Positions 387 to 549 of a stretch of 64,000 nt of DNA are shown here, one piece after another. The stretch's first letter is position 1; each line of letters opens with the position of its first letter. Made by a program: the position numbers and the translations under genes. Location: the NCBI RefSeq assembly GCF_053078305.1, contig NZ_CP166879.1; one strand, written 5' to 3'. The notes beneath the pieces are model-generated. The model was not told the origin of the DNA and made no database searches. It worked only from the letters and a program-made list of their open reading frames with translations.

Positions 387-424
387 GTTAAGGATTGTGG
401 GATTGCCCCTGGGCATATAAGAAC

Positions 425-460
425 GTAGGTCGGATAAGCCTCCTTCGCGGTGCATCCGAC
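425..460. repeat. degenerate REP-like palindromic element in nuoL-nuoM spacer
   Basis: gtaggtcggataagcc...gcatccgac resembles REP consensus (GTAGGCCGGATAAG...GCATCCGGC) with mismatches. Confidence 0.4.
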
Positions 461-549
461 ACTACCCCCAGTCCGAAGAGAATTTTCTGTCGTGAGAATT
501 CGTTGAAAATCCGGTCCTGACGGGACTTTTACAAGGAATAAAGATCGCC

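Follow-up and report, generated by a model that had tools for sequence, protein, structure and literature searches.

A singleton, degenerate REP element in the nuoL–nuoM spacer of Escherichia coli, most likely the surviving half of an older REP doublet

The spacer between nuoL and nuoM raises the question of what the palindrome that lies within it is, where it came from, and whether it has any effect on the expression of the nuo operon in which it is carried. The locus stands at the beginning of a 64,000-nucleotide stretch of DNA (hereafter the window), and its host is E. coli. The window opens within nuoL, and nuoL, nuoM and nuoN are all encoded on the + strand, to which all coordinates of the spacer given below refer: the 3′ end of nuoL occupies positions 1–386 (ORF 12–386, stop codon 384–386, according to the RefSeq annotation of strain 14EC033 and of K-12), nuoM occupies 550–2079 (an ORF of 509 amino acids, also in the RefSeq annotation), and nuoN corresponds to the ORF at 2086–3543. 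Region 300–640 is 100% identical to E. coli strain 14EC033 and was matched in 5423 of 5426 complete E. coli genomes, each time once and each time at nuoL/nuoM. The spacer itself, at 387–549, is indeed 163 bp long, as stated in an initial annotation of this DNA, and that of K-12 MG1655 has the same length and differs from it by one SNP. The same annotation had placed a degenerate REP-like palindrome within 420–470, which we could confirm and delimit to 425–461 (GTAGGTCGGATAAGCCTCCTTCGCGGTGCATCCGACA); the CTAC that follows at 462–465 pairs in the folds with the GTAG at the 5′ end and extends the hairpin to 425–465.

Membership of the palindrome in the REP family was examined against the other REPs of the window. 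The 14-nt motif GTAGGYCGGATAAG of the REP 5′ arm occurs eight times in the 64 kb when up to two mismatches are allowed, against 0.44 occurrences expected, and the other seven occurrences are textbook REPs. A covariance model was trained on these seven only, leaving out the nuoL–nuoM copy, and the whole window was then searched on both strands with the filters off. The nuoL–nuoM palindrome gave a full-length match to model positions 1–37 with 37.1 bits (E 2.4e-9), ranking directly beneath the training REPs (52–61 bits), the next independent match having 16.7 bits. Since its reverse strand reaches only 4.4 bits, the GTAG is carried on the sense strand of nuo. REPs of E. coli are imperfect palindromes that carry GTAG at the 5′ end and, within the stem, a mismatch of two bases needed for binding of TnpA_REP (RAYT), the enzyme with which the REP/BIME family is associated (Ton-Hoang et al. 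2012, PMC3333891). In the nuoL–nuoM element, the GTAG at 425–428 forms the foot of the hairpin, GTCGGAT (429–435) pairs with ATCCGAC (454–460) in a basal stem in which 7/7 pairs are intact, AA (436–437) stands opposite GC (452–453) in an internal loop that is unpaired in every fold, and a diverged stem-loop at 438–451 forms the apex; the whole is an imperfect palindrome of 37 nt, and it is extragenic, since nuoL stops at 386 and nuoM starts at 550. The GTAG, the 7-bp stem, the AA/GC mismatch, the apical stem-loop, the length, the extragenic location and the existence of many similar copies in the genome are all shared with the y-type REPs (PMC3333891), from which the nuoL–nuoM copy differs by a compensated C-to-T/G-to-A change in the basal stem relative to the canonical GCCGGAT/ATCCGGC, by an apical part that is diverged and 2 nt longer than in canonical copies, and by its score, which is 15–24 bits under theirs. 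Because every sequence property tested for family membership agrees, as does the alignment to the REPs of the window, we assign the palindrome on sequence grounds to the E. coli REP/BIME family, with the y-type as the closest. The label ‘degenerate’ is accurate as well, given the lower score, the longer and diverged apex, and a G-to-T change in the window allele that opens the apical stem.

A stable hairpin is predicted at this site. Folded as RNA, region 420–470 has an energy of −20.3 kcal/mol, compared to −10.5 ± 2.5 kcal/mol for shuffled sequences (z −3.99, with 0 of 200 shuffles as stable), and the 41-nt core at 425–465 folds at −19.2 kcal/mol (z −4.5), while the fold of the whole spacer is less striking (z −2.1). 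The corresponding hairpin has −24.6 kcal/mol in K-12 and −25.3 kcal/mol in the E. coli reference genome, canonical REP copies being in the range of −21 to −26 kcal/mol. Around the REP hairpin, the minimum-energy fold of the spacer forms an outer helix from an inverted repeat, of which the left arm, GGATTGTGGG at 392–401, pairs with the right arm, CCCCAGTCC at 466–474. The left arm is homologous, by alignment, to GGATTGCGG of Citrobacter, and the right arm directly follows the REP and its CTAC. The hairpin is consequently followed by CCCCAGTCC and not by the T run that would come after the G+C-rich hairpin of an intrinsic terminator. A scan of 300–650 for promoters and terminators, the latter on both strands, gave no such site, and a search of 1–3000 against Rfam with permissive E-values returned two chance matches only, both inside nuoM, and no family at the spacer; four related loci likewise gave no relevant Rfam match. 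An inverted-repeat search with a 6-nt seed missed the arms of the REP and reported a single weak 20-nt repeat at 468–487/505–524. A small ORF at 395–520 (41 amino acids, TTG start) was dismissed as a chance occurrence because comparison between species shows no coding conservation of the spacer.

In contrast to a BIME, in which a REP and an inverted REP are joined by a linker, the window spacer contains a single REP, which is thus a singleton outside any BIME, as are 84 of the 584 REPs of K-12 (PMC3333891). Such elements are already known, the same one is present in K-12, and nothing about it is new in kind. A search of the literature on nuoL/nuoM together with REP found no relevant paper, and the RepRanger supplements contain no per-gene REP list. 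In the RefSeq annotation of K-12, a REP feature is absent at nuoL–nuoM; repeat features are absent from the other regions examined too, including 5000–6500, where the GenBank record of K-12 presumably annotates a REP element, and the missing feature is therefore uninformative. Other REPs of the window, the neighboring genes of which were assigned by mapping to K-12, are a singleton at 48007–48047 between the counterparts of yfaE and inaA, with an ACTAC tail like that of the nuoL–nuoM copy, a head-to-head pair at 56422–56505 between the counterparts of ubiG and yfaL, and four canonical REPs at 49495–49664, arranged as two iREP/REP pairs in a BIME array that corresponds to the nrdA–nrdB spacer of K-12, the published example of a REP near a stop codon. 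The weak match to the model (16.7 bits, E 0.006) is GTAAGCTGGATAAAACATTTCTGCATCACATCCAGCT at 5563–5599 on the + strand, which resembles a strongly decayed REP whose GTAG reads GTAA. This match sits in the intergenic stretch 5511–5661, for which no match was found when window positions 5000–6300 were compared by blastn to two stretches of K-12.

Among E. coli genomes, the REP allele of the spacer (163 bp, 95.8–100% identity, once per genome) is present in 4698 of 5426 complete genomes, that is, in approximately 87%, and the remaining 13% lack it. Seven REP alleles chosen to spread over this identity range were compared. Their SNPs concentrate in the apical stem (440–451) and just 3′ of the REP, whereas GTAG is constant in all seven and the basal stem varies only once, by a G–U wobble at 459 in one allele; the energy of the hairpin ranges from −25.3 to −14.9 kcal/mol. 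Since GTAG and the basal stem are nearly invariant and 87% of the genomes retain the allele, the hairpin may be under some constraint. In strain KTa008, the outer inverted repeat is perfectly paired, and its right arm, CCACAATCC, is as in Citrobacter.

To look at the spacer beyond E. coli, we used one scan of species-representative genomes, which yielded 80 Enterobacteriaceae loci. The spacer varies in length from 27 to 292 bp over the 80 species and has a modular make-up. Five species have a bare spacer of 27 bp with no hairpin, and many have a core of 76 bp that consists of GAATTCGTTGAAAATC, a small G+C-rich hairpin and the ribosome-binding site. REP-like elements are found in the 5′ part of the spacer in 21 of the 80 species, with head-to-head doublets of the form iREP-CCTAC-linker-GTAGG-REP in 14, and in some species a palindromic element of about 120–140 bp is found in the loop of the small hairpin. 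In addition, the region of the nuoM ribosome-binding site exists in two unrelated versions, AAGGAATAAAGATCGCC and TAAGGGACATACTTAGCT, both of which occur within E. coli and both within Citrobacter. The nuoL–nuoM spacer is therefore a hotspot for repeat insertion.

The truly conserved structure of the spacer is not the REP but the small hairpin, located at 513–527 (GGTCCT-GAC-GGGACT), 5 nt upstream of the nuoM Shine-Dalgarno sequence AAGGAA (533–538), which is itself 11 nt upstream of the ATG at 550 and invariant in the spacer alignment. Across 22 distinct Enterobacteriaceae spacers, 94.2% of the alignment cells of this hairpin are paired, and both partners have changed in three pairs (15 cells). 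None of 500 shuffles reached its covariation score or its percentage paired, and when the 3′ partner was slid by 1–3 columns as a control, the paired fraction was 26–73%. The hairpin is preceded at 496–511 by the block GAATTCGTTGAAAATC, which is near-invariant in Escherichia, Citrobacter, Enterobacter, Phytobacter, Silvania and Atlantibacter, and its loop is the place that is occupied by an ERIC-like element in other species. That the 3′ half of the spacer might hold another REP was considered and dismissed, the hairpin at 513–527 being a different, older and conserved element. Possible roles for it would be that of an insulator of the ribosome-binding site, or of an mRNA processing or stability element.

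In 724 of the 5426 complete E. coli genomes, O157:H7 included, the spacer is occupied by an unrelated allele of 230 bp. Copies of this allele in E. coli strain 138 (positions 388–617 of locus L002), E. whittamii (812–1041 of L010) and Salmonella enterica subsp. arizonae (1576–1805 of L021) are identical at 230/230 positions, and the identical tract amounts to about 313 nt, about 75 nt of which lie within nuoM. The flanking genes of E. coli and S. arizonae are 86% (nuoL) and 90% (nuoM) identical, and 95–97% identity was seen for E. whittamii. Such identity would point either to recombination of a short tract between genera or to extreme constraint. The core of the allele is an imperfect palindrome of about 120–140 bp (458–595 of L002), inserted in the loop of the hairpin by the ribosome-binding site. 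This insert is dispersed in E. coli, with a median of four places per genome at 60–80% identity in a distant-mode BLAST search, and one copy lies between pheM and pheS (401–492 of L087). Judged against the ERIC core and by its dispersal, the insert resembles ERIC/IRU, presumably making the 230-bp allele, like the spacers of many other genera, a case of an ERIC-like element filling the space where a REP is found in the window; ERIC is a palindromic intergenic repeat as REP is. What the window contains is not ERIC: a search of it for the ERIC2 primer core, allowing up to three mismatches, gave no match.

How did a lone REP come to be here? We regard it as likely that the element is a singleton y-type REP, the surviving half of a doublet, which decays slowly and travels in the nuo mRNA as a near-neutral passenger. 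In a MAFFT alignment, the E. coli REP falls opposite the right-hand member of the doublets found in Citrobacter sp. R56, Pseudocitrobacter and Phytobacter, with which it has the GTAGGTCGG…CCGACA variant in common; the linkers are alike (TAAGAAC versus CAAGACC), and the flanking inverted repeat GGATTGYGG…CCRCAATCC is common to E. coli and the doublets of the other genera. To the left of the REP, positions 403–424 (TTGCCCCTGGGCATATAAGAAC) align with the 3′ part of the left iREP plus linker (…CACCGGGCCTACAAGACC) of the Citrobacter and Pseudocitrobacter doublets, the identity of this putative left partner (404–418/403–424) resting on the alignment since it scores only 0.9 bits with the REP model when taken alone. 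Because position, variant, linker and flanking repeat match those of the doublets and a remnant of the left iREP appears to be present, what survives in E. coli is most likely the right-hand REP of an old iREP-linker-REP doublet, a history read from the alignment of short, repeat-rich sequence. Such a doublet would have colonized a hairpin in the nuoL–nuoM spacer before Escherichia and the Citrobacter group split, its left partner would then have been almost wholly deleted, and the survivor would be decaying slowly in its apical stem. REP singlets that are decayed halves of REP doublets (REPINs) were reportedly described by Bertels and Rainey in 2011, and the nuoL–nuoM locus, where a lone REP lies beside the remnant of an inverted partner while related genera keep the full doublet, resembles such singlets, although the REPIN concept was developed in Pseudomonas. 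An alternative would be that Escherichia acquired the REP recently and independently, by insertion into a spacer prone to taking up palindromic repeats, in which case it would not be left over from an ancestral doublet. Since the copy of each genus resembles the REP type of that genus, with internal sequences of the GGAT…ATCC type in E. coli (GGATAAG…CATCC in the spacer copy) and of the GGGT…ACCC type in Citrobacter (GGGTAAG…CACCC), and since the spacer is a clear hotspot with many occupancy states, independent insertion, or else gene conversion, is possible; yet it leaves the match of position, flanking inverted repeat, GTAGGTC…GACA variant and linker with the Citrobacter right-hand REP unaccounted for, as well as the plausible left-REP remnant at 403–424, and we consider it unlikely. 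That the palindrome might have arisen by chance and be unrelated to REPs is suggested only by its lower profile score and diverged apex, and this is effectively refuted by the E-value from a model that never saw the site, by the eightfold occurrence of the 5′ arm motif where fewer than one was expected, and by the fold z-scores of −4.0 and −4.5.

The favored reading, that of a decaying doublet half carried as a near-neutral passenger, has also to be weighed against the possibility that the element is functional. The initial annotation had raised the idea that the REP affects mRNA stability and differential expression of the subunits, which is true of some REPs but finds no support at nuoL–nuoM, where only its identification as a degenerate REP held up. 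A functional stabilizer of the malE–malF type would block PNPase and RNase II after endonucleolytic cleavage downstream, giving the nuoA–L message a longer life than nuoMN and thereby tuning subunit synthesis. Compatible with this are the stability of the hairpin, its location on the sense strand of the mRNA, and the invariance of GTAG and the basal stem in the sampled E. coli alleles (one G–U wobble apart). The subunits of complex I are needed in equal amounts, however, and with an equimolar complex there is no obvious need for their unequal synthesis; moreover, this REP is missing from other species and from 13% of the E. coli genomes. For other REPs the mechanism is established, as reviewed in PMC5927463. 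Nevertheless, neither a 3′ end just downstream nor differential decay is seen at nuoL–nuoM in published K-12 data. The K-12 spacer (2393042–2393204) contains no curated Term-seq 3′ end under the three conditions listed for MG1655 (LB at two densities and minimal medium; supplementary file 1 of PMC7815308, coordinates beginning 23930, 23931 or 23932), although curated 3′ ends do occur inside nuoN, nuoL and nuoG (PMC7815308), and the transcript-end mapping that had been proposed as a check on the idea thus argues against it. In the rifampicin decay data of Dar and Sorek, nuoA–N is among the 390 operons analyzed (table S2), while nuoK, nuoL, nuoM and nuoN are absent from the 47 differentially decaying operons of table S3, for which a difference of at least 2-fold in both decay and abundance was required (PMC5927463). 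As these are thresholded lists from the K-12 lineage (MG1655 and BW25113) under few growth conditions, a small or condition-specific stabilizing effect would be missed by them. Comparison with the REPs of malE–malF and nrdA–nrdB leads in the same direction: these too lie between cistrons of a polycistronic operon and form an RNA hairpin, but each is a cluster of several REPs, and effects of these on mRNA stability or translation are documented, whereas the nuoL–nuoM spacer has a single REP for which neither a 3′ end nor differential decay is reported. The REP that is proximal to nrdA is, by coordinate mapping, about 7 nt from the nrdA stop, as against 38 nt from the nuoL stop (386 to 425) for the nuoL–nuoM REP. 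Ribosome stalling induced by REPs concerns REPs within 15 nt of a stop codon (the class of Liang, Rudd and Deutscher, as presented in PMC12306157), and at 38 nt the nuoL–nuoM REP falls outside this class. Altogether, the evidence is against a measurable regulatory effect of the REP at nuoL–nuoM, a weak or conditional one being possible, and a stabilizer of the malE–malF type appears improbable to us. Still more improbable, in our judgment, is a role at the level of DNA or transcription, whether by partly attenuating transcription into nuoMN or by binding gyrase, DNA polymerase I or a nucleoid protein. Such roles have been proposed for REPs and BIMEs in general (PMC3333891 and PMC12306157), but the REP is alone here and lacks a long, IHF-site-bearing linker as in BIME-1, the scan for terminator-like sites was negative as were the Term-seq data for the spacer, and nuoA–N passed the filter of the decay study against internal promoters, terminator motifs and known substantial Rho-dependent termination (PMC5927463).

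What this leaves is a REP that is co-transcribed in the nuoA–N mRNA as a hairpin of about −19 kcal/mol in the window allele and −25 kcal/mol in the best E. coli allele, that would act at most as a minor barrier to 3′-to-5′ exonucleases for the upstream nuoA–L, and that would not set the NuoL:NuoM ratio. The element is dispensable, because five species have a 27-bp spacer without the hairpin and 724 E. coli genomes carry an unrelated allele; near-neutrality of the copy where it is retained would be in keeping with this.

REPs are among the best-catalogued bacterial repeats, and the nuoL–nuoM copy matters little in itself, other than as a clear-cut negative case, in which a REP inside the operon of an equimolar complex does not detectably affect transcript ends or decay. 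Its surroundings are slightly more interesting, comprising an insertion hotspot, two deeply different E. coli alleles, and a covarying hairpin before the nuoM ribosome-binding site. One could tentatively imagine, though we hold it to be rather doubtful, that the spacer is an old landing pad defined by structure, which receives REP doublets in its 5′ hairpin and ERIC-like elements in the loop on the nuoM side, with the E. coli REP predating the genus and with alleles that either cross between genera or are ultra-conserved. If this were true, selection or exchange would be acting on the RNA of the spacer, beyond a mere turnover of junk sequence.
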